The notes beneath the pieces are model-generated. The model made no database searches. It was not told the DNA's origin and worked only from the letters and a program-made list of their open reading frames with translations. A DNA stretch of 64,000 nt from NCBI GenBank assembly GCA_049322615.1, contig JBMORX010000001.1:6715-70714 (forward strand), in the 5' to 3' direction. Made by a program: the position numbers and the translations under genes. Shown here one piece after another: positions 12,929 through 56,127 of this stretch; the stretch's first letter is position 1, and each line of letters opens with the position of its first letter. Source of the DNA: Patescibacteria group bacterium (GTDB taxonomy: Bacteria > Patescibacteriota > Microgenomatia > CAYGWK01).

Positions 12929-14128
12929 TTAGGAAATTACTTTGGAAATCACCCCAGCCCCAACTGTGTGTCCGCCTTCCCGAATAGCAAATCTTAATCC
13001 TTCTTCCATTGCCACTGGTTGAATTAACTTTACCTTCATCTTGGCATTATCCCCTGGCATAACCATTTCTACCCCCGAGGGCAGAGTGGTTTCTCCAGTA
13101 ACGTCAGTAGTTCTGATATAAAACTGGGGTCTGTACCCGGTGAAGAAAGGAGTGTGTCTTCCTCCCTCTTCTTTGGTTAAAATATAAACTTCAGCCTCAA
13201 ATTCGGTGTGAGGAGTAATTGTCCCAGGCTTTGCTAAAACCTGACCCCGCTCAACATCATCTTTTTCAATTCCCCGAAGTAAAACTCCAATATTGTCTCC
13301 TGCCTGACCTTCGTCCAATGACTTTCTAAACATCTCAATCCCGGTGACAACTGTCTTTTTGGTTGGTCTAATTCCCACAATTTCAATCTCATCATTTAAC
13401 TTTACCTTACCTCGTTCAACCCGACCGGTAACGACTGTTCCCCGACCTTTAATTGAGAAAACATCCTCAATTGGCATTAAAAATGGCTTATCCAAATCTC
13501 GAGTAGGGGTTGGAATATTCTCATCAACCGCCTTGGTCAAATCCAAAATTGCTTTTTCTGCCTCAGCGTCTCCTTCAAGAGCCTTCAATGCCGAACCGCG
13601 AATAATCGGAATTTTATCCCCTGGAAACTGATATTTAGTCAAAAGTTCCCTAATTTCCATCTCAACCAAATCTAAAAGCTCTGGATCGTCAACCATATCA
13701 ACTTTATTTAAGAAAACGACAATTGCCGGAACATTTACCTGGCGAGCCAAAAGAATATGTTCTCGGGTTTGAGGCATTGGTCCATCAGGAGCGGAAACGA
13801 CCAAAATTGCGCCATCCATCTGGGCCGCTCCGGTAATCATGTTTTTGACAAAGTCCGCATGTCCCGGACAGTCAATATGAGCATAGTGGCGATTATCGGT
13901 CTCGTATTCGGAATGATGAATGTTAATAGTTACCCCGCGTTCTTTTTCTTCTGGAGCATTGTCAATGTCATAGAAATCCAAGGCTTTGGTTTTATTACCT
14001 GGCTGCTTTGATAAAACGTGGGTAATGGCGGCGGTTAGAGTAGTTTTTCCGTGGTCAACGTGACCAATCGTCCCAATGTTTAAATGGGGTTTGGTTCTTT
14101 CAAATTTTGCTTTTGCTGTTTCTGCCAT
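12929..14128 (-). CDS. tuf: elongation factor Tu
   Basis: [25 protein letters not shown] GTPase motifs; 399 aa. Confidence 0.97.
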
Positions 14129-14256
14129 ATTTTTTGAGTTAAAAAAGAGGTCTAAACCTCAAATCTTTTTGTATTTTACAGGCTTATTTTACAGATGTCA
14201 AGCCCCGATTGCAAATCGGTGTATAAGTTAAGTCAAGCACCTTATTTGTAACTTCT

Positions 14257-15045: not shown

Positions 15046-17154
15046 CTAACTCTTCCTCGCTAAAATTGCTTCTTGAATGTTTTTTGGGACTTCTTCATAA
15101 TGAGAAGGCTCCATATAATAGGCAGCCCGACCTTGGGTTAGAGAACGCAAGGTGGTGGCATAACCGGGAATCTCGGCTAAAGGAACCAAAGCAGTAATAA
15201 CCCTAACTTTCCCTCTTATTTCTGAACCTAAAATTTGGGCTCGGCGAGAAGACAAATCGCCAATGACTGTTCCCATAAATTCTTCAGGAGTGGTCACCTC
15301 AAGCTTCATAATTGGTTCAAGTAAAGTTGGCTCTGCTTGTTTGACCGCCGACTGTAAAGCCATACTTCCAGCAATCTTAAAGGCGATTTCTGATGAGTCA
15401 ACTTCATGGAATGTTCCATCATAAACCGCCACTTTCATATCAACTAAAGGATAGCCAATCAAAACCCCATTTTCCATTGCCTCCCGGGCTCCTTTTTCAA
15501 TTGCCGGAATAAATTCTGAAGGAATAGCCCCACCTTTAATTTCTGACTTAAATTCGCAGCCTTCACCCCTGCCTTTTGGTTCAACCCGCAAGAAACAATG
15601 ACCATATTGTCCTCGCCCACCAGTCTGTCTAATATATTTCCCTTCAGCGAAGGCTTTCTTTTTAATCGTTTCTTTATAGGCAACTTGGGGACTACCTGTA
15701 GTTGCTCCGACGCCAAACTCTCGTTTCATCCGATCAACAATAATCTCTAAATGTAATTCTCCCATCCCGGAAATTATTGTTTGTCCGGTCTCTGGGTCAG
15801 ATTTTATCTTGAAGGTTGGGTCTTCTTCAGAAAGTCGACCTAAAGCATAGCCTAATTTTTCCTGATCAGCCCGAGTTTTTGGTTCAATCGCCAAAGAAAT
15901 AACCGGTTCGGGAAATTTAATTGACTCCAAAATTATCGGATGAGCGGGATCAGCCAGAGTATCCCCAGTGGTCGTCTTAACCAGTCCGATAGCGGCGACA
16001 ATTTCCCCAGCAAAAACTTGGGAGATTTCTTCACGTTTATTGGCATGCATTAAAAGAAGTCTGCCAACTCTTTCCGGCTCGTGCCTGGTAACATTCAAAA
16101 GACTTGTGCCAGACTTAAGTGTTCCTGAATAAATCCGCAGATATGTCAGTTTTCCTACATGGGGATCAGTTTGAATCTTAAAAGCCAAAGCGGAAAAAGG
16201 CTCCTCGTTTTTGGGCTGGCGGGCTTCTTTCGAGTTTGTTTTTGGATTTATTCCCGAAACTGGCGGAACATCTAAGGGCGAAGGCAGAAAATCTACGACC
16301 CCATCCAAAAGTGGCTGAACTCCTTTATTACGAAGAGAGCTTCCACAGTAGATTGGCACAAGGCGAGAGGAGATAGTGGCTTTTCTAAGCGTCGCTTTCA
16401 AATCAGCCAAAGGCGGTTCCTCTCCCTTGAGGAATTTTTCAATTAAAGCTTCATCTTCTGAGCAAATTTCCTCAACCAGTTTTTTGCGAGCCTCTTCAAC
16501 CTCTTTTTCCATCTCCGCAGGAATTTCTTTCTCGGAAAATTTCACCCCTGATTCGTCCTGATCCCAAATTAAGGCTTTTTTCTCCAAAAGCAAAACCACA
16601 CCGCAAAAATCTTGTTCTTTGCCAATCGGTAAAGTTAAAACAGCGGGTTTTGCTCCAAGCCTGTCTTTAATCATCTCAATCGTTCGAGGAAAATTTGCTC
16701 CAAGTTTATCCATCTTATTGACGAAAACGAGCCTGGGAACATTATATTTTGAGGCTTGATGCCAAACAGTTTCCGACTGTGATTGAACTCCTTCTTCGGC
16801 ATCAAAGACAACCACTCCACCGTCTAAAACGCGGAGTGACCGTTCGACTTCGGCCGTAAAATCAACATGACCAGGGGTGTCAATAATATTTATTCTAGTA
16901 TCTTTCCAAAAGGTTGTCACTGCGGCGGAAACAATCGTAATTCCTCGCTCTCTCTCTTGAGCCATCCAGTCAGTAACCGTTGTTCCCTCATCAATATTCC
17001 CCAGTTTATAAGTTCGACCAGTATAAAAGAGAATCCGCTCGGTCGTCGTCGTTTTTCCAGCATCAATATGGGCAATAATGCCAATATTGCGAACTTTTTC
17101 AAGCGGGACAACTCTTTCTTTAGTGATTTCAATTTTAGGAACTTGTTGAGCCAT
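15046..17154 (-). CDS. fusA: elongation factor G
   Basis: [21 protein letters not shown] and the EF-G domain IV/V signatures; 702 aa. Confidence 0.97.
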
Positions 17155-17310
17155 AAATATAATCTAAAATTTAAAATGTATAATTGATAATTATTATATC
17201 TAATTTTAAGCGTACAAAAAACTGCTTTTCGCAGTTTTGCCTCGAAAGATATTTTAACAAAAACGAGTTTGTAATTCAACAACTTGAAAATATATGATAT
17301 AATTTAAAAA

Positions 17311-38906: not shown

Positions 38907-40769
38907 TTAGTCTAGTGTTGCATAGATCCGACGGATACCGGCGCCTGCCGACCCTTCTTTTATAATCTTAAACCTTCCAAGCCTGCCTGTAAAGTCAACA
39001 TGAGGTCCACCGCAAACTTCAACCGAAAAAACTTGCCCTGAGCCTACCGAAGGGTCTCCGATTGAGTAAACCTTAACTTTTTCACCATATTTTTTTTCAA
39101 ATTCAGCCATGGCTCCTTTCTCCTTGGCTTGCTCAAGCGTCATCATTTCCATCTCAACTGGCAGGTTTTCTTTTATCTTCTGGTTTACTAATTCTTCCGT
39201 GTCTTTCAGTTCTTTTTCCGTGAGTTTCCGTGGGTTGGGAAAGTCGAAACGAAGCCGCTCGGCCGTGATATTTGAACCAGATTGTTTAACATGCTCGCCT
39301 AAAATTTTCCGCAGGGCAGAATGCAAAAGATGGGTAGCTGTATGAAGTTTTGTAACTTTCTCCGAATGATCCGCCAAGCCGCCGGCAAATTTTTTCTCTG
39401 CCCCAACCCGAGAAGTTTCCTGATGTTTTTTAAATTCTTCTTCAAATGCTTTTTTATCAATTTTTTGCCCCCTTTCTTGAACAATTTCCTCGATCATCTC
39501 CAGAGGGAATCCATAGGTTTCGTAGAGATAAAAAGCAATTTTTCCATCAAGTTTTTTACATTTTTCTATTTCTTTAAGTCCGCGCTCTAAGGTTTTTTTA
39601 AATTTTTCTTCTTCCAAAGTCAAAGTTTCCAAAATCTGGTTCTTTTTCTTTTCTAATTCTGGATATTCTCCTTTCATTGTCTGAATTACAGTTTCTGCAG
39701 CATTTGGAGTAAACAGTTTAATTAATTGTCCGCCTTTGGCGGAAAGTGTTCTTCCAAAACGGACTGCTCGTCGAATCAGTCGGCGCAAAACATATCCCTG
39801 TTCAACATTTGAAGGTGTCACACCATCGGAAATCAAAAATGTTGCCGCCCGAAGATGATCAGCAATAATTCGCATTGGTTTTTGGTTTTCTTCTTGCTCG
39901 TAATTTTTTCCAGAAAGCACTTCAATTGATTGAATTATTGGTTTAAACAGTTCTGTTTGGTAATCATCATCAAGTCCACCCAAAACCGCAACCGTTCTCT
40001 CAACTCCCATCCCGGTATCCACGTTTTTTTGTTTAAGAAAAACATATTCGAAATCCTTTTCTCTGGCGTTCTCATTTTTTAATTTTTCATTTTTAATTTT
40101 TAACTTTTTTTCGTACTCCATAAAAACATCATTCCAAATTTCAACCCAGGAAACATCATCTGGATTAAAGGTTTTTGGTGCTTCATCTTTGCCCACCCAA
40201 ACAAACATTTCCGTATCCGGTCCGCAGGGACCAGTTTTCCCAGCCGGGCCCCACCAATTGTTCTTTTTGGGTAATTTTGCTATTCGAGTATCGGATATAC
40301 CCAATGAAACCCAAATATCATATGATTCCTTATCAAATGGAGCATCGTTATCTCCAGCAAAAACGGAAATTGCCAGTTTGTTTTTGTCAATTCCCAACCA
40401 TTCTTTACCGGTTAAAAACTCAAAACTCCACTGGATCGCTTCTTTTTTCCAGTACCCGCCTTGTCCGATGCCGTCAGGCGAGGCAGGATCTCCCAAACTC
40501 CAATTTCCCAACATTTCAAAAAAGGTATGATGGACAGTATTTCCGACTTTATCAATATCATCGGTCCGCAGACATCTTTGAACCGAGCAAAGTCTCTCGC
40601 CAAAGGGGTGAGGCTCACCAAGTAAATATGGTACCAGCGGGTGCATGCCGGCGGAAATAAAAAGAGCAGTTGGATCGTTTTCGGGAATCAAGGAAGCATT
40701 GGGGATAACTCTATGCCCTTTTTTGGCAAAAAAATCAAGATATTTTTGCTTTAATTCTTTAGCGGTCAC
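38907..40769 (-). CDS. alaS: alanine--tRNA ligase, short form (catalytic, tRNA-binding and editing core; no C-Ala domain)
   Basis: FISAGMHP ... HHTFFEMLGNWSLGD class II core; editing HxxxH (HTATHLLH) and CGGPHV; 620 aa; an in-frame [13 protein letters not shown] repeat insert. Confidence 0.9.
   Translation of the reverse strand: MTAKELKQKYLDFFAKKGHRVIPNASLIPENDPTALFISAGMHPLVPYLLGEPHPFGERLCSVQRCLRTDDIDKVGNTVHHTFFEMLGNWSLGDPASPDGIGQGGYWKKEAIQWSFEFLTGKEWLGIDKNKLAISVFAGDNDAPFDKESYDIWVSLGISDTRIAKLPKKNNWWGPAGKTGPCGPDTEMFVWVGKDEAPKTFNPDDVSWVEIWNDVFMEYEKKLKIKNEKLKNENAREKDFEYVFLKQKNVDTGMGVERTVAVLGGLDDDYQTELFKPIIQSIEVLSGKNYEQEENQKPMRIIADHLRAATFLISDGVTPSNVEQGYVLRRLIRRAVRFGRTLSAKGGQLIKLFTPNAAETVIQTMKGEYPELEKKKNQILETLTLEEEKFKKTLERGLKEIEKCKKLDGKIAFYLYETYGFPLEMIEEIVQERGQKIDKKAFEEEFKKHQETSRVGAEKKFAGGLADHSEKVTKLHTATHLLHSALRKILGEHVKQSGSNITAERLRFDFPNPRKLTEKELKDTEELVNQKIKENLPVEMEMMTLEQAKEKGAMAEFEKKYGEKVKVYSIGDPSVGSGQVFSVEVCGGPHVDFTGRLGRFKIIKEGSAGAGIRRIYATLD
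40072..40106 (-). repeat. The same AT-rich in-frame repeat inside alaS (encodes [13 protein letters not shown])
   Basis: tcattttttaatttttcatttttaatttttaac. Confidence 0.6.
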
Positions 40770-50161: not shown

Positions 50162-50986
50162 TTATGGCAGGGTTGAGCCTTTGTAGATTTTGGGTTCAAG
50201 CCAGTCCGAGGGGGCCGCCGCTTGGGTTTTCTTCTCTTCTTTTGGAGGAGAAACCACCTCTCTTCTTCCTCCGGCTCGCAAACAGAAAGCCGCTGCCTCA
50301 AAGGTATCAGCGGAAACTTTCGGATTTTGAAAATTTTGCGTTGCCTCTCCTATTCCTTGGATTAAATTAGAGCCAATGTCTTCATCAATCGGCAAACCTA
50401 GACTCTGAATAATCGCCGCCACCGTCTCCGAACAAGAGGAAGACTCCAAATCCACCAGGTTTAATCTCCCGAAATTAGAATTTTGAGGGTTATTGTCAAT
50501 GTTGACTATCGGTTTTTCCTGAAAAATTACCTGGTTTTCTAAATATATTTTTCCTAAGCCTTCAACTTTCCTTGCGCCGACGGTAATAACAAGATCTACT
50601 CCTCCCCCAGATTGGTTAAAAATAATTTGTTCTTTAGTGATTGGCGAGACCCCTGCTTTCGGGGCAATAACTAAACTTAGGTGTTGACCATCATCTGTGG
50701 TTGAAATTTTATCAACATTCTCAATTGGGGTATTTATGGTTAAAACTAAATTTCCCCCTAAGATTTTATCAGTTATTTTATCAAGACCTACAAGGTGGGA
50801 GAACCCAACTGTCATTGGTTCGGGAGAGACGATATTGACACTTTTTCCTGTTTTTGAAAGACTTAAAAATAGAGAAAGACCGGCCGCTGCCTGATCTAAA
50901 GTAACGCTTTTAGGCAAGCAAATCAAAACATTTTTTGCTTCTCCTAAAAGTCTTTGAATTTCTGTGAAAGGATAATTCTTATTCAT
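50162..50986 (-). CDS. DHH/DHHA1-like (NrnA-like) protein with a degenerate active site
   Basis: Occupies the rbfA/nrnA slot downstream of infB. A GGG motif (FNQSGGGVD) sits where DHHA1 has GGGH, and no DHH motif is visible, so it is probably inactive or divergent. Confidence 0.45.
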
Positions 50987-53900
50987 TTGTCTTGGGCAGG
51001 GCGGGCTGATATTAACACATCACCAACCTTGAAGTCAAGTGAGGGCGTGAAAACTGCGCCAAATTCTTCTCCTTCTAAAGCCTCGGAAATATCAGTTTTT
51101 TGATGTTTCATTGAAGAAATTTTTGTTTCTCCAACTTCCTTTCCCCCTCTTTGAAGAGACAAATTGCAAGTCTTATTTATTCTTCCTTCTAAAACCTTGC
51201 AACCAGCAATTCTTGTTCCGGAGATATTGAATCCCTTAATAATCACCGCTTTACCCAAGATTTCTCTTTCAACTTCAGGCAAAACTTTCTCCAGTCCTTT
51301 TTTCTCTACATCCTCCAAAAGTTCATAAATAATTTTATAGGTTTTTATCTTCACTTTTTCGGTTTCTGCCAGTTTCTCAACTTGAGAGGAGGCTTTGACA
51401 TTAAAACCAACAACTTCAGCGTTAATTGTCCGGGCAAGTAAAATATCAGATTCCAAGATGTCTCCAACGCCTGACATAACGATAAAAACATTTCCTGGTA
51501 AACTTCCTTTTATCGCCTCTCCAGAACCAAAAGAATCAGTTCTTAAAATAATTTTAAGTTTGTCTTTTGCTTCTTCTGGAATTTCAAGTTTTCCTATCTC
51601 CCTGGGCAAAGCTTGGGGAGTTGTTAGTTCTTCTATTTTCTCCACCTTGGCTCCCACTAAAGGAAAACTCTCAAAACCCCAAACTTCGACTGGCTGACCA
51701 GGTTTAGCCTCAGTTAAATTCCTGCCATTTTCATCCATCATTCCTCGAACTCGAGTGGAAACTTTCTCAACCAAAATCTGCTCACCTGTCCTTAGGGTAC
51801 CATTTTTGACAATCATCGTTCCCACCATCCCCCTCCTATCCATTTTTGATTCAATAACGACAGCCTCAAGGGGCGCTTGCGGGTCGCTTTTAATTTCTTC
51901 CATCTCCCCCAAAAGAAGAATCATCTCTAGAAGTTCTTCTATTCCTTGTCCGGTCTTGGCTGAAACTGGGACGCAGACGATATCTCCACCATATCCCTCA
52001 ACTAAAACTCCATTATCAGCTAGCTGTTTTTTTACTTTCTCTGGGTCGATTCCAGGGAGATCAATTTTACTTATGGCAACTAAGAATGGCACTTGGGCTT
52101 CCTTGATATGCTCTAAAGACTCTAGGGTTTGGGGCATGACACCATCATCAGCCGCTACCACCAAAACGACAATATCAGCCACGTTTGCCCCTCGAGACCG
52201 CATGGCGGAAAAAGCCTGATGTCCTGGAGTATCAATGAAGGTGATCTTGCGTGTTTGGTCCACAAGGTCATCCTGAGCTTGCCGAAGGATCCCTCGACTC
52301 TCTTCGGTCGCTCGGGATGACGGTTCCACCGTCACCTGATAAGCGCCTATTTTTTGGGTAATTCCCCCGGCTTCCCTTTCAGCGACGTGTGTTTGGCGGA
52401 TACGGTCAAGAAGGGTGGTATTGTGAATAACGATACGCTCAGCAATAAAGTTATGCGTGTCAGGGACAGTAAAATCGTACACAAATTTATCCCGTGCTCT
52501 TATTTTTTCTACCTTGCGAACTCTCACAGAACTTAAACTGGTATTTAAAACCGCTCCCATCTGATTCTTAAATTTTAGTAATCCTAAAGAAGATAGGTGT
52601 TTTAAAAAAGGACGAGTTAAAAACCCGCTGGTTTTCTGGTAACTGCCCCAATACGGAATTACCTTGTTGTTAGTTTTAATTCCCTTTAAAAACTGAGAAG
52701 TTAAAGGAGTAAAATCAAAAATTCTACTCACCGAGGACCTAGTTAAAGCATTTTTAATTCTTGTTTTCTTATAATCAAGCCGTAAATTAAATTGTCGTAA
52801 GAAAATCTCAAGATAAGGCTTGTTGGCGATACGCAAATAAGTATAACCATTCTTGCGATAGAGCGTACTGTGGATGCCAAAGTGAAGTAAGGTCACGCCT
52901 ACCTGTCTTAACAAAATCTCACTTCTGCTTGTAAATTCGGCGCTGTAATTAATTTCCGAAACATAGCCGTCGGTATCAAAAAGGCCAGCAATAAATTCTC
53001 TCATTAACGGAAGGGAACGGGTTATTAACGAAGGCACCCCTACCTCCGAGCTTTTCCGAAGGAGGGGAATATCGAAAATCTCTGTCATAAAACGTCGCAA
53101 TGTTTTACCGCCAGTGGTATAACTCTTGAGGGCGGGATGACCGCGCCTAGTTTGAGTAGCGACACCAAATATTTCCTCCATGTATTTCCTAAAAGTTCCA
53201 TAAACCTGAGCATCATTGTTGTGAAGGAAGATATTGTTCTCATTAAGGCTACCATCACCGACAATACAGCCAGTAATATAAGCCAATTTAGTAAAATCTG
53301 TTTTGGTTTTAGGGAGAATAATTTTGTTACTTGTGTGTCCAACTCGCCATTTTGGGGAAGCATTCTTGACTGCCGTTATAAAATCATAAAGCTCCTCATC
53401 AGTAAAACCCAGAATAGAACCAAGATTAAGATAGTCCTGGAGGCGCAACCGTCTTTTTCCAAGCTGCGTCCGGGCATCAGTCGTGAATAAATTCTTTCTC
53501 ACAAGATCGCTGGTTTTGCATTTTTGGATTTTTTGCCAAAACCTTTCTGCTTCTTTATGTAAAAAAATTACCCAATTCCCCCGAGCTATCATCCTTTGCA
53601 AAATATCTCTTTTAATATCTTTCAGGCTTGCCGAGCGGATAGGTAAATCTTTCGGCACAATGACAAAATCACCTACTGTTAACTGTTCTGCTTTCTTTTG
53701 GATGATTTCTCCATGGGGAGTAAAAAGATAGAAAGGATGCTCTCCTGTCGTCACCACCCTATCACCCGAATAAAGTGCTGTCCTAACAAGGTACTTTGGA
53801 GAATTTAGTTTCCAAAGATGAGAAACGCGACGCGTGGTTATTCTTTTTCCATCAAAGCTAAAAACTTTAAGTAAACCTTTCAATTCAAACCTTGATCCGT

Positions 53901-54087
53901 CTGGAAATTTTTCTTCTTGAAGACTGCCGGAATAAATCTCGAAAATTTTGGCGGCGGTAAGAACTCTACCGTCGGCGAGGGGAATTAACGTCTCACCGGT
54001 AACGCACTTTCCATGGTCAACGTGTCCTAAAACCGCCACAATCGGCGGCCGGGTAAAAGCTTTGCTTTTCTCTTCTTTTTTGGCCAT
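50983..54087 (-). CDS. infB: translation initiation factor IF-2 interrupted by an intein in the G1 P-loop
   Basis: GHVDHGK | C...HN | TTLLDRIRQT, then the G-domain, domain II and C-terminal domain; 1034 aa, of which 529 are intein. Confidence 0.95.
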   Translation of the reverse strand: MAKKEEKSKAFTRPPIVAVLGHVDHGKCVTGETLIPLADGRVLTAAKIFEIYSGSLQEEKFPDGSRFELKGLLKVFSFDGKRITTRRVSHLWKLNSPKYLVRTALYSGDRVVTTGEHPFYLFTPHGEIIQKKAEQLTVGDFVIVPKDLPIRSASLKDIKRDILQRMIARGNWVIFLHKEAERFWQKIQKCKTSDLVRKNLFTTDARTQLGKRRLRLQDYLNLGSILGFTDEELYDFITAVKNASPKWRVGHTSNKIILPKTKTDFTKLAYITGCIVGDGSLNENNIFLHNNDAQVYGTFRKYMEEIFGVATQTRRGHPALKSYTTGGKTLRRFMTEIFDIPLLRKSSEVGVPSLITRSLPLMREFIAGLFDTDGYVSEINYSAEFTSRSEILLRQVGVTLLHFGIHSTLYRKNGYTYLRIANKPYLEIFLRQFNLRLDYKKTRIKNALTRSSVSRIFDFTPLTSQFLKGIKTNNKVIPYWGSYQKTSGFLTRPFLKHLSSLGLLKFKNQMGAVLNTSLSSVRVRKVEKIRARDKFVYDFTVPDTHNFIAERIVIHNTTLLDRIRQTHVAEREAGGITQKIGAYQVTVEPSSRATEESRGILRQAQDDLVDQTRKITFIDTPGHQAFSAMRSRGANVADIVVLVVAADDGVMPQTLESLEHIKEAQVPFLVAISKIDLPGIDPEKVKKQLADNGVLVEGYGGDIVCVPVSAKTGQGIEELLEMILLLGEMEEIKSDPQAPLEAVVIESKMDRRGMVGTMIVKNGTLRTGEQILVEKVSTRVRGMMDENGRNLTEAKPGQPVEVWGFESFPLVGAKVEKIEELTTPQALPREIGKLEIPEEAKDKLKIILRTDSFGSGEAIKGSLPGNVFIVMSGVGDILESDILLARTINAEVVGFNVKASSQVEKLAETEKVKIKTYKIIYELLEDVEKKGLEKVLPEVEREILGKAVIIKGFNISGTRIAGCKVLEGRINKTCNLSLQRGGKEVGETKISSMKHQKTDISEALEGEEFGAVFTPSLDFKVGDVLISARPAQDK
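52420..54006 (-). mobile_element. intein (Hint splicing domain plus LAGLIDADG homing endonuclease) inserted between GHVDHGK and TTLLD of IF-2
   Basis: N-terminal CVTGETLIPLADG (block A), LAGLIDADG motifs LAYITGCIVGDGSL and EFIAGLFDTDGYV, C-terminal VIHN followed by Thr+1; 529 aa. Confidence 0.85.
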
Positions 54088-54093
54088 TTTTTC

Positions 54094-55188
54094 TCACTTC
54101 TTTTTTGTTTTTTTTGTTTTTTTCTGTGCTTTCTGCTTGCCCGCCGTAGCCTTGCTCGGCCTCCGCAGCCGCTTCGGCGAAGGAGGCGCGGAGGCGGGTG
54201 TTGCAGGTTTTCCCTCTCCTTCACCCATAATATCAATTTTGTAGCCAGTCAATTTTGCCGCCAGCCTGACGTTTTCTCCCTTTTTGCCAATTGCCAAAGA
54301 TAATTGATCCCCAGGGACAACCACTTTAGCAGTTTTTAGTTTTTCATTAAGCTCAACGCTTATTCCCTGAGCTGGAGATAAAGAGGCGGTAATAAATTTT
54401 TCTGGATTATCGCTGTGCTGAATGATATCGATTTTTTCCCCATTTAACTCTTCAATTACTTCCTGAACCCTAACCCCTTTTTGACCAACGCATGAGCCAA
54501 CTGGATCAACTCCGGCTTGATTTGAGAAAACAGCAATTTTAGTCCTTCCTCCCGGTTCTCGGGCAATGGCGGCAATTTCAACTGCTCCTGAGGAGACTTC
54601 AGGTACTTCTCGTTTAAAAAGTCCTTCCACCAAACCCCTTGAGGCTCGAGAAACAATAATTTGTTGACCGCGAGGTCCCTCTTTAATTCCTTCAATATAA
54701 AACGTCAGTCTTTGATTAAGCTTGTAGCCCTCGCTTCTGACTTGTTCTGAAGGAGGCATAACCGCCTCGGTTTTACCAATATCAACCACAATGTTAGGAC
54801 CATCAAAACGGAGAATCATTCCCGAAACTAGAGTGCCTATTCTTTGCGAATACTCATCCAAAATAGCACTTTTCTCAGCCTCGCGGATTTTTTGCAAGAT
54901 TACTTGTTTTGCGGTCTGAGCGGCAATTCTTCCAAATCCAGGGGGGGTAATATCTTCTCTTTTTTTGCCCTTTTTCTGAAAAATCTTTGCTTCGCCTGAA
55001 GAAGGGTTTATTTCAACTTCAAATTCTTCTTCTTCAGGAATTACTATTCCCCGCTCCCGGGCATCCCGCCGGTAGGCGGCGACAATGGCTGCCTTAATTG
55101 TTTCCAAAACCACCTCGGGCTCAATCCCTCTTTCTGTGGCAACTTGAGTTAAGGCAGTGGCAAATTCAGTTCTTGGTATATAAGCCAT
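54094..55188 (-). CDS. nusA: transcription termination/antitermination factor NusA (start at MAYIPRTEF; the track ORF extends upstream through a repeat element)
   Basis: N-terminal domain, S1 domain, two KH domains, and a lysine-rich tail. Confidence 0.9.
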   Translation of the reverse strand: MAYIPRTEFATALTQVATERGIEPEVVLETIKAAIVAAYRRDARERGIVIPEEEEFEVEINPSSGEAKIFQKKGKKREDITPPGFGRIAAQTAKQVILQKIREAEKSAILDEYSQRIGTLVSGMILRFDGPNIVVDIGKTEAVMPPSEQVRSEGYKLNQRLTFYIEGIKEGPRGQQIIVSRASRGLVEGLFKREVPEVSSGAVEIAAIAREPGGRTKIAVFSNQAGVDPVGSCVGQKGVRVQEVIEELNGEKIDIIQHSDNPEKFITASLSPAQGISVELNEKLKTAKVVVPGDQLSLAIGKKGENVRLAAKLTGYKIDIMGEGEGKPATPASAPPSPKRLRRPSKATAGKQKAQKKTKKTKKK

Positions 55189-55195
55189 AATAGTA

Positions 55196-55262
55196 TCGCA
55201 GAAACGCAAAATTTTCTGCGTTTTCGCGCCCCGATTTAATCGGGGTTCCGCGCCTTTGCGTA
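55196..55262. repeat. GC-rich palindromic element, copy 3 (inverted orientation), immediately upstream of the nusA start
   Basis: Reverse complement gcggaaccccgattaaatcggggcgcgaaaacgcagaaaattttgcgtttctgcg aligns base-for-base with copy 1. Confidence 0.8.
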
Positions 55263-55368
55263 TCTTAAAAAGGTGGGTTCTTCCCACCTTCAGAACGTCT
55301 GACGTTCTCAATCTCACTTAAACTTAAGAAAAATTCTATCACGAAGACTTTCAGAAGTCAAACAAAAA

Positions 55369-56127
55369 TTACGGACAATTTAAAGCCTTGCGCCAACCGG
55401 CTGCTTTGGCTTCTTCTTCTGAACAAAACCAGCGTTCGCCCCGGCTCTCATCTATTTTGGTTTTGGCATAAGAACCACAAGTTTGAAGATGATAAATTTT
55501 TTCTCCAGAGGAGCTGATGTTTCCCTTAATATTACAATCAGCCGAAATCTTGCCGCTGGGGGATGGGCTGGAAACTGTTGGTGATGCCAAAGGACAAGCG
55601 GACCAAAGTCCTCGATTTTCTCTTCTGGCTTCTGCCTCGGCGGCAAGAATTTCAGTTTGATGTTTTACGTCTGGCGGATAGGTGTAAGAAGTGGCAAAAC
55701 CAAGTTTTACCAACTCAAGATTAACAAAGACGACTTGTCCTGAGCCTGTCGAAGGATCCACGTAAACATAGCGCAAAAGCCTGCCATACTTATCTTTGTC
55801 AGAAATATCTTTTTCCAAACGAACATTTTTCCCTTCAACCAATTCTTTATTCTTCCTTGAAGCCTCAACCCCAAAACATTGAACTGGTTTTCGGGGATCA
55901 ACTGTTTCTGGAGTATCAATCCCTAAATAGCGTACCCGTTCACCACCTTCGATTTCGATAGTATCACCGTCAATTACCCGAGTTACTTTAAAAGTTTCTG
56001 AAACTGGCAATGGCAAGGAAGATTTATTATCAATGTTTACTCGACCTAAAAGAAAACCAATCAGAAGAAGGAAAATCCCGCCAGCCAGAAAAACAAGGCT
56101 CTTTTTCTCAATTTTCACCAAAACCAT
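55369..56127 (-). CDS. membrane-anchored SNase-like thermonuclease, paralogue of 33641..34315
   Basis: [26 protein letters not shown] SNase core, and the shared C-terminal domain [26 protein letters not shown]...[19 protein letters not shown]. Confidence 0.8.

Follow-up and report, generated by a model that had tools for sequence, protein, structure and literature searches.

A predicted LAGLIDADG intein in the P-loop of translation initiation factor IF-2 of a candidate phyla radiation bacterium and its kinship with archaeal aIF5B inteins

Inteins inserted in the translation initiation factor IF2/aIF5B are known mainly from archaea, with 15 cases given in table 2 of PMC4760082; a "mature (intein free)" construct of the P. 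abyssi aIF5B is mentioned in PMC9226500. Eukaryotic IF2/aIF5B inteins have been described in Chytridiomycota and Glomeromycota (PMC5784728) and in Anaeramoeba (PMC10710043). The top-15 table of bacterial intein hosts in PMC4760082 does not include IF-2, and this article stresses that core translation proteins contain few inteins. [quoted passage not shown] The present work concerns a 64-kb stretch (the window; 64,000 nt) of contig JBMORX010000001.1 from a metagenome-assembled genome (MAG) of an ultra-small Patescibacteria group bacterium (CPR, Microgenomates-like), in which the infB gene, encoding IF-2, contains a predicted full-length intein in its P-loop. This case fits the endonuclease richness of CPR rRNA introns. 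A full-text literature search, together with the top-15 table of PMC4760082 (supplement not included), revealed no published intein in a bacterial IF-2 or in any CPR protein; within these sources, an IF-2 intein in bacteria seems to be unreported.

The infB precursor is encoded on the reverse strand by one unbroken reading frame (50983..54087 (-), 1034 aa plus stop), which reads MAKKEEKSKAFTRPPIVAVLGHVDHGK / CVTGETLIPLADG ... ERIVIHN / TTLLDRIRQ, the slashes marking the borders of the insert. The intein occupies positions 52420..54006 (-) (1587 nt, 529 aa, precursor residues 28–556, Cys1 to Asn529) and is inserted in the G1 motif, or P-loop, between Lys27 and the Thr of GHVDHGK/TTLLD. The N-extein (54007..54087 (-), 27 aa) ends with GHVDHGK, the first half of the P-loop. 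The intein ends with THNFIAERIVIHN, after which the C-extein (50983..52419 (-), 478 aa plus stop) begins with TTLLDRIRQTHVAEREAGGITQ; it starts with TTLLD, its +1 Thr is encoded at 52417..52419 (-), and it contains the remaining part of the G domain, domain II, and the C-terminal IF-2 domains. An earlier note on this DNA, made from the letters alone, had described a 529-aa intein splitting the IF-2 P-loop and retaining a homing endonuclease domain. Its borders proved exact to the base, and the Cys of block A, the two LAGLIDADG motifs, and ERIVIHN followed by TTLLD are all present. The checks that it proposed, namely an alignment of the joined exteins, a profile search with the insert, and a comparison with catalogued insertion sites, likewise came out in its favor, as did the IF-2 identity of the host. 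Two points are absent from it: the apparent lack of bacterial examples among the known IF-2 inteins, and the archaeal affinities of this one.

The splicing motifs of the insert are readily recognized. Block A (CVTGETLIPLADG, 53968..54006 (-)) contains the Cys1 nucleophile and matches the NCBIfam profile TIGR01445 intein_Nterm with 47.3 bits (cut-off 24.5). Block B (VVTTGEHPFY, 53728..53757 (-)) contains T87-x-x-H90, block F (KFVYDFTVPDTHNFIA, 52441..52488 (-)) contains D511, and block G (ERIVIHN, 52420..52440 (-)) ends with H528-N529 and matches TIGR01443 intein_Cterm with 25.5 bits (cut-off 15.6). Thus, all sequence features of a class-1 intein are present: the N-terminal Cys, the TxxH of block B, the Asp of block F, the terminal HN, and the +1 Thr. 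The LAGLIDADG homing endonuclease core (52732..53304 (-), intein residues ~235–425) consists of two alpha-beta-beta-alpha-beta-beta-alpha halves. Its first motif (LAYITGCIVGDGSL, 53245..53286 (-)) includes the catalytic D251 in GCIVGD251G, and the second one (FIAGLFDTDGYVS, 52957..52995 (-)) includes the catalytic D346 in GLFDTD346G. The Pfam Intein_splicing profile covers precursor residues 75–556 (E = 1.7e-22, 80–83 bits, gathering cut-off 35.8), and LAGLIDADG_3 is matched inside this span in two stretches, also above its gathering score (E = 5.5e-21). Since the Pfam and NCBIfam intein and LAGLIDADG profiles all exceed their cut-offs, the similarity of the insert to inteins is far beyond chance.

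Residue conservation was scored on an alignment of 44 related inteins, 32 of which form the IF2 clade. Cys1, T87, E89, and H90, as well as V509, Y510, D511, and H528-N529, are invariant in all 44 sequences and present in the window intein. The catalytic D346 is found in 32/32 and D251 in 31/32 members of the IF2 clade; the window intein keeps both. Among whole-family NCBIfam models, the insert taken by itself is matched best by the intein portion of PRK14845 (97.7 bits); in sequence searches, archaeal inteins of solved structure are matched as well (PhoCDC21-1, PI-PfuI, VMA inteins, and PolII inteins). The GC content of the intein is 0.395 (0.36 at third codon positions), and that of the window is 0.401. 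Because these values are equal, the intein is not an artefact of foreign composition, and nothing in its composition points to recent arrival from an unlike donor. No further inteins of this family were found elsewhere in the window.

The AlphaFold (AF2) model of the intein based on a 13-sequence alignment has a mean predicted local distance difference test score (pLDDT) of 89.6 and a predicted template modelling score of 0.90. It superseded a run with a 5-sequence alignment, which gave a pLDDT of 50 and was unusable outside the LAGLIDADG core. In the accepted model, pLDDT is ~90 across the endonuclease core, and the order of the secondary structure elements in residues 235–425 fits the pseudo-dimeric alpha-beta-beta-alpha-beta-beta-alpha fold. 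The N- and C-terminal beta-strand regions of the Hint part are predicted with pLDDT >90, and this predicted structure superimposes on the mini-inteins 4o1s and 6rpp with a root-mean-square deviation of 1.3–2.2 A. A Foldseek search against the PDB gave full-length intein homing endonucleases as the top matches: TliVMA (7qss; E = 6e-25, TM 0.65/0.78), PI-TkoII (2cw7), PI-PfuI (1dq3), PhoVMA, and PI-SceI. For the endonuclease part, I-DmoI, I-Tsp061I, and WhiA were found, with TM 0.66–0.75 relative to the target. The two-motif LAGLIDADG domain is therefore recognized by Pfam, by alignment, by the AF2 model, and by Foldseek. Judged by its sequence and modelled fold, the insert is an intein of the canonical class-1 type that carries a two-motif LAGLIDADG homing endonuclease, and the same features suggest that it would be active both in splicing and in DNA cleavage.

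Deletion of the intein in silico joins 27 and 478 residues into a 505-aa protein with an unbroken P-loop motif. The spliced extein scores 463 bits on TIGR00487, the bacterial IF-2 equivalog (cut-off 424.4), and the unspliced precursor scores 433.6 bits, only 9 bits over this cut-off. The alignment of the spliced extein with T. thermophilus IF-2 is gap-free through the P-loop, and that with six intein-free CPR IF-2 proteins is gap-free across the insertion site. According to these comparisons, the host protein is a genuine bacterial IF-2. It is of the short CPR form, which is why the intein (529 aa) exceeds the mature protein (505 aa) in length. The gene order, nusA, infB, an open reading frame (ORF) of 274 aa, rpsO, and pnp, is the same in the intein-free relatives L083 and L086. 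The public record MFZ5365728.1, derived from a MAG and lying on a contig of 110.7 kb, contains the same protein under the label "GTP-binding protein [Patescibacteria group bacterium]" only. The genes of EF-Tu and EF-G (12932..14158 and 15049..17163) have uninterrupted P-loops, and no second IF-2 homologue was found within the 64-kb window, which covers part of the genome.

The following course of events can be proposed; its splicing and homing steps follow, by inference, from chemistry that is well established for inteins of class 1 and for LAGLIDADG enzymes. Translation of infB would give the 1034-aa precursor, which would not bind GTP normally before splicing because its Walker A loop is split. 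An N-S acyl shift at Cys1 would be followed by the attack of the +1 Thr hydroxyl on the thioester (trans-esterification), then by the cyclization of Asn529 with the assistance of His528, releasing the intein, and finally by an O-N shift producing a normal peptide bond. The expected products are the 505-aa IF-2 with an intact P-loop and the free 529-aa intein. The free intein, or the precursor, may cut an intein-less infB at a sequence of ~20–40 bp spanning the junction; repair of the break would then copy the intein in, together with flanking extein DNA, which constitutes homing.

Relatives of the intein were sought by an exhaustive HMMER search in 1.84 billion representative proteins, which gave 1932 matches at E<=1e-3 and only 39 at E<=1e-30. 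A word-indexed protein search gave just six matches; the family emerged from the exhaustive search and from a scan of GTDB DNA. The nearest full-length intein, P0008, shares 45% identity with that of the window; for P0023, a fragment of 123 aa, the figure is 66%. The GTDB scan, with one genome per species, revealed 25 full-length relatives (L002–L026) with 34–42% identity, all with the same junctions, GH(V/I)D(H/C)GK / C...HN / (T/S), of an IF2-type GTPase. The full-length identity to 31 other IF2/aIF5B inteins is 34–45%. The family is small and occupies one common site in at least eight IF-2 genes of CPR bacteria and in about 24 aIF5B genes of archaea, mostly DPANN.

Five of the 25 hosts from GTDB are bacterial, namely Saccharibacteria, Uhrbacteria, Peregrinibacteria, a "Patescibacteria group" MAG, and an unclassified "bacterium" MAG; the hosts of P0008 and P0013, found among the protein representatives, are also bacterial. 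The remaining hosts are Micrarchaeota, Woesearchaeota, Pacearchaeota, Nanoarchaeota, unclassified archaea, and one representative of Geothermarchaeales. The spliced exteins of the bacterial hosts match TIGR00487 with 418–738 bits, whereas the three archaeal exteins tested match PRK04004/TIGR00491 and not TIGR00487. On PRK14845, the model of the intein-containing archaeal IF-2, position 475 marks the start of the C-extein both in the window protein and in three archaeal relatives, and the window precursor aligns without a break from blocks F/G into the C-extein (model positions 437–590). Since these alignments agree, the element lies exactly where the classical, catalogued IF2 intein of archaea does, at the same junction between Lys and Thr.

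More distant full-length LAGLIDADG homologues (21–29% identity) are located at the equivalent GK/T position of the Walker A motif in other GTPases and ATPases of archaea: aEF-2 (L027–L048), FtsY, the receptor of the signal recognition particle (SRP) (L032/L035/L037), MCM (L049/L055), and V-ATPase A (L057). Judging from these sequences, the intein lineage appears to have hopped between the P-loops of different genes. The aEF-2 and FtsY inteins are full-length and homologous to the window intein (23–29% identity), with the junctions AHIDHGK / C...HN / TT and GFNGTGK / C...HN / TT; they differ in their host genes, are all archaeal, and form an outgroup to the IF2 clade (100% bootstrap). Their position after GK and before TT shows that this lineage has the Walker A codons of GTPases acting in translation and in SRP as its target. 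Two of the aEF-2 inteins deviate from this pattern. The intein of L048 (Methanomassiliicoccales) ends with HK, not HN, and its ORF stops five codons later, and in L047 the C-extein is out of register after ~30 residues; it is possible that both are decaying copies or assembly errors. Separately, three archaeal aIF5B proteins (P0019, P0021, and P0029) with the P-loops GHTDAGK / GHVDSGK carry a second intein lineage at the same site. Their inteins group with those of aEF-2, outside the main IF2 clade, and do not belong to the lineage of the window intein; this means at least two invasions of the site or an ectopic transfer from aEF-2 to aIF5B.

The phylogeny of the inteins was analyzed by the neighbour-joining method (Kimura-corrected distances, 520 columns, 200 bootstraps). 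The CPR and archaeal IF2 inteins form one clade with 100% bootstrap support, separate from the aEF-2, FtsY, and second aIF5B (P0019/21/29) inteins. Within it, the window intein and P0008 are grouped with 80% support. In the point tree, the eight bacterial inteins lie together, nested among the archaeal ones, with 35–39% support. The mean identity is 0.41 among the bacterial inteins, 0.45 among the archaeal ones, and 0.37 between the two groups. A recent cross-domain pair was sought and not found, the maximum identity for any bacterial intein being ~0.44. Because bacterial monophyly has weak support (35–39%) and is lost with the endonuclease-only columns, no single inter-domain transfer is claimed. 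The tree places the inteins of CPR bacterial IF-2 and of archaeal, mostly DPANN, aIF5B in one common lineage. We conclude from these sequences that any inter-domain transfer is ancient, and that several numbers and directions of transfers are compatible with the tree. Most likely, the domain boundary was crossed at least once, long ago, since the P-loop target is conserved in both domains.

The distribution of the intein among close relatives of the host is patchy. The best 120 relatives of the window IF-2 from a collection of 5.8 billion proteins (50–82% identity, 461–519 aa) contain no intein or LAGLIDADG Pfam domain (0/120). Of these intein-free proteins, P0154 is the closest (84% identity in the alignment); the nearest one that bears a name comes from Shapirobacteria. 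Upstream of the insertion point, the window flank agrees at 28/30 nt with the empty sites of L082 and L083, which share the sequence GCGGTTTTAGGTCATGTTGACCATGGAAAG/ACTACTCTTTTGGATTTTATC. The empty site of L083 reads GCGGTTTTAGGTCATGTTGACCATGGAAAG/ACTACTCTTTTGGAT, the corresponding flanks in the window being GCGGTTTTAGGACACGTTGACCATGGAAAG/ACCACCCTTCTTGAC, and the stretch of L083 DNA spanning the junction is GGTCATGTTGACCATGGAAAG/ACTACTCTTTTGGAT.

When the window infB is compared with that of L082, its closest relative, an excess of synonymous divergence can be noted next to the intein. At positions with identical amino acids, 53–55% of codons are identical over ~170 codons directly downstream of the intein, versus 78–79% over the C-terminal ~300 codons (Fisher p = 1.4e-6). 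An unbiased maximum-chi-square scan placed a breakpoint after precursor residue 725, at window position ~51913 (permutation p<=0.0005), and no significant breakpoint was found in four control pairs. We regard this ~0.5-kb region (51913..52419 (-)), which diverges from the closest intein-free orthologue, as a putative gene-conversion (co-conversion) tract, that is, a possible footprint of intein gain or intein loss. Gain in the window lineage and precise loss in the lineage of L082 are equally expected to give such a mosaic tract. Comparison with the outgroups L083, L085, and L086 gave 0.46 vs 0.59 identical codons at ~115 sites, a difference within noise.

Taken together, the reading that we favor, with a probability of about 0.9, is that a class-1 LAGLIDADG intein lies in the P-loop of a CPR infB, is spliced out of IF-2, is a homing element, and belongs to a lineage shared with archaeal aIF5B after an ancient crossing of the domain boundary. 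A narrower proposal is that this lineage moved between two groups of ultra-small episymbionts, from DPANN aIF5B to CPR IF-2 or in the reverse direction, by homing on the conserved P-loop codons and then spread patchily in CPR (Microgenomates-like bacteria, Saccharibacteria, Uhrbacteria, and Peregrinibacteria), the mosaic G domain being the scar of a comparatively recent homing event; it is tentative, with slightly less than even odds. Several points weigh against the favored reading. Splicing and endonuclease activity are deduced solely from sequence and predicted structure. The window covers 64 kb of the genome, and a second, intein-free infB may exist elsewhere. The outgroups do not separate the two directions of recombination, gain here and loss in the lineage of L082. 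Bacterial monophyly, at only 35–39% bootstrap, vanishes with the endonuclease-only columns, and the trees are neighbour-joining only. Finally, no sampled relative is closer than the 45% of the nearest full-length intein and the 66% of the 123-aa fragment; no recent donor is known, and the element could therefore be old and immobile in this lineage.

This last point leads to the most serious alternative, a relic that still splices but no longer moves: acquired long ago, with a dead endonuclease, and kept since imprecise loss from the P-loop of an essential gene would be lethal. It is consistent with the remoteness of the closest full-length relative (only 45% identical) and of the best cross-domain match (identity ~0.44), with an intein composition fully ameliorated to that of the host, and with the decaying stages that the homing cycle predicts (general knowledge; PMC11270868 for the CPR rRNA-intron endonucleases). 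However, the entire LAGLIDADG core, with its two catalytic Asp residues, is conserved and confidently modelled, the full 529 aa are kept, with no reduction to a mini-intein, none of the 120 nearest relatives of the host protein has the intein, and a recombination breakpoint abuts its site. We therefore consider the relic unlikely, although it deserves to be kept in mind. The suggestion of the earlier note that the element may still be mobile stands as a matter of compatibility only: the kept catalytic Asp residues, the patchy distribution, and the recombination footprint agree with it. Its statement that splicing must be efficient is softened here to a reasonable inference, because no second infB is present in the window, a part of the genome.

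The intein might also have been co-opted as a post-translational switch (conditional protein splicing) that activates IF-2 only under certain redox or temperature conditions. An insertion in the P-loop renders the precursor inactive by construction, Cys1 chemistry is generally known to be redox-sensitive, and the clustering of inteins in functional motifs is argued to reflect regulatory use in PMC4760082. Nevertheless, no sequence feature specifically points to regulation, the patchy distribution (0/120 nearest relatives) argues against a selected host function, and the endonuclease is kept, as expected of a selfish element; such a switch is improbable. Still less probable, indeed hardly tenable, is a non-splicing insertion or a dead infB pseudogene in a genome that encodes a functional IF-2 elsewhere. 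The 64 kb covered and the annotation of the protein merely as "GTP-binding protein" leave some room for it, but the 3.1-kb ORF and all the splicing residues are intact, an intein-free orthologue from an operon of the same layout shares 84% identity with the extein, and reduced CPR genomes are generally known to duplicate translation factors rarely. An assembly or binning chimera, with a DPANN archaeal intein misjoined into a bacterial infB contig, is next to incredible: the closest named intein relatives are archaeal and the source is a MAG, but the insertion is precisely in frame at the canonical K/T site, both exteins are bacterial, the intein GC matches the host, related inteins occupy this site in at least seven further bacterial IF-2 genes, which are independent and come from different studies, and no archaeal sequence is more than 42% identical, so that no donor for misjoining is available.

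With the present element, Bacteria join the hosts of the long-known P-loop intein of IF2/aIF5B, within a class of proteins, the translation factors, that rarely carry inteins according to PMC4760082. It also provides a concrete case of a selfish element common to CPR bacteria and DPANN archaea, reduced and co-occurring lineages in which gene exchange is hard to study. Should the proposed movement between DPANN and CPR hold, infB/aIF5B would serve as a natural marker of DNA exchange between the domains in groundwater-type communities, and possibly as a conduit for it. There is a practical side as well. The spliced extein of P0008 scores 418.3 bits, just under the TIGR00487 cut-off of 424.4; given such narrow margins and the vague label of the public record, intein-bearing or short CPR infB genes are easily mis-annotated and can be missed in marker-gene and completeness analyses of CPR genomes. 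An intein larger than its host protein and of mesophile-like composition is, moreover, a candidate splicing or endonuclease tool, with the universally conserved P-loop codons as its predicted, defined target.

Several other features of the locus can be noted. The nusA gene upstream (54094..55317 (-)) is listed with a GTG start and encodes 407 aa, compared with 351–373 aa for the NusA of relatives; its C-terminus in the window is an Ala/Pro/Lys-rich tail (...PATPASAPPSPKRLRRPSKATAGKQKAQKKTKKTKKK). The distance from the nusA stop to the infB start is 7 nt, and in the relatives the two genes overlap by 14 nt. No Rfam family reached its gathering score anywhere in the 64-kb window, which therefore contains no tRNA, rRNA, or riboswitch genes.

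The C-extein contains a second, non-intein insertion of 23 aa (PSSRATEESRGILRQAQDDLVDQ, 52255..52323 (-)), located in frame in the beta2–beta3 loop of the G domain, between G2 and G3. Its DNA is a GC-rich imperfect palindrome with a predicted RNA fold of -39.6 kcal/mol (z = -4.1). It is missing in T. thermophilus IF-2 and P0154, and a form shorter by 7 aa is present in P0155/L085. The corresponding GC-rich peak at ~52250–52330 was examined as an intein boundary and rejected; the insertion is separate from the intein, yet lies within the mosaic tract. Its 18-nt core, CCTTCGRCARGCTCAGGA, occurs in three copies in the window against 0.13 expected, each in frame within a coding gene: in infB (52271..52288 (-), read as ILRQAQDD), in alaS (ORF 38907..40769; copy at 39036..39053 (-)), and in a nuclease-like ORF (55369..56127; copy at 55738..55755 (-)). 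The frame in infB differs from that in the latter two genes, where the core reads DPS(V/T)GSGQ. The core was also found in at least 120 metagenomic stretches with variable flanks, often self-complementary and in some cases in inverted pairs; no Rfam family corresponds to it. These sequences suggest a small hairpin repeat of wide occurrence, for which insertion in frame is tolerated or preferred.

Comparison with known systems shows how much of this locus is familiar. The full-chain fold predicted for the window intein is like that of TliVMA/PhoVMA (7qss, 7qst), PI-TkoII (2cw7), PI-PfuI (1dq3), and PI-SceI (1vde), with which it shares a Hint domain split by a two-lobed LAGLIDADG domain and accessory DNA-binding regions (Foldseek E from 6e-25 to 7e-11, TM up to 0.78); the VMA inteins are likewise inserted in a P-loop NTPase. 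The sequence identity to these endonucleases is only 12–18%, and their hosts are V-ATPase A, RNR (ribonucleotide reductase), and PolB. The window intein also differs in a helical linker of ~110 residues (~126–235) and in a helical segment of ~60 residues before block F, both modelled at lower confidence.

The free-standing endonucleases of CPR rRNA introns, such as I-ShaI (PMC11270868), share with the window intein the CPR hosts, including Shapirobacteria-like bacteria, the protein superfamily, the homing logic, and a patchy distribution that has been read as homing. They are mostly single-domain proteins encoded by group I introns that lie in rRNA genes and are excised from the RNA, whereas the window enzyme has two motifs, is embedded in a Hint domain, and would be removed at the protein level.

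The closest described system is the P-loop intein of archaeal aIF2/aIF5B (Pyrococcus, Methanocaldococcus, and others; NF011418/PRK14845). Its host is the orthologous universal IF2/eIF5B GTPase, it is inserted at the same point (between the Lys of GHVDHGK and T/S), its class-1 chemistry is the same (Cys1 ... HN / Thr or Ser), it is full-length with LAGLIDADG_3, and homology with it is detectable (97.7 bits to the intein part of PRK14845). The window intein differs in its host, a bacterial IF-2 (TIGR00487) from a nusA–infB operon of CPR, and thus departs from all the described IF2/aIF5B cases, whose hosts are archaeal or eukaryotic; its closest relatives are of the DPANN/Micrarchaeota type (37–42% identity), not the classical euryarchaeal ones. 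The bacterial host is an extension of host range and brings no mechanistic difference. The element is mechanistically ordinary, and it is new only in its host range, Bacteria, and in the relationship between CPR and DPANN inteins.

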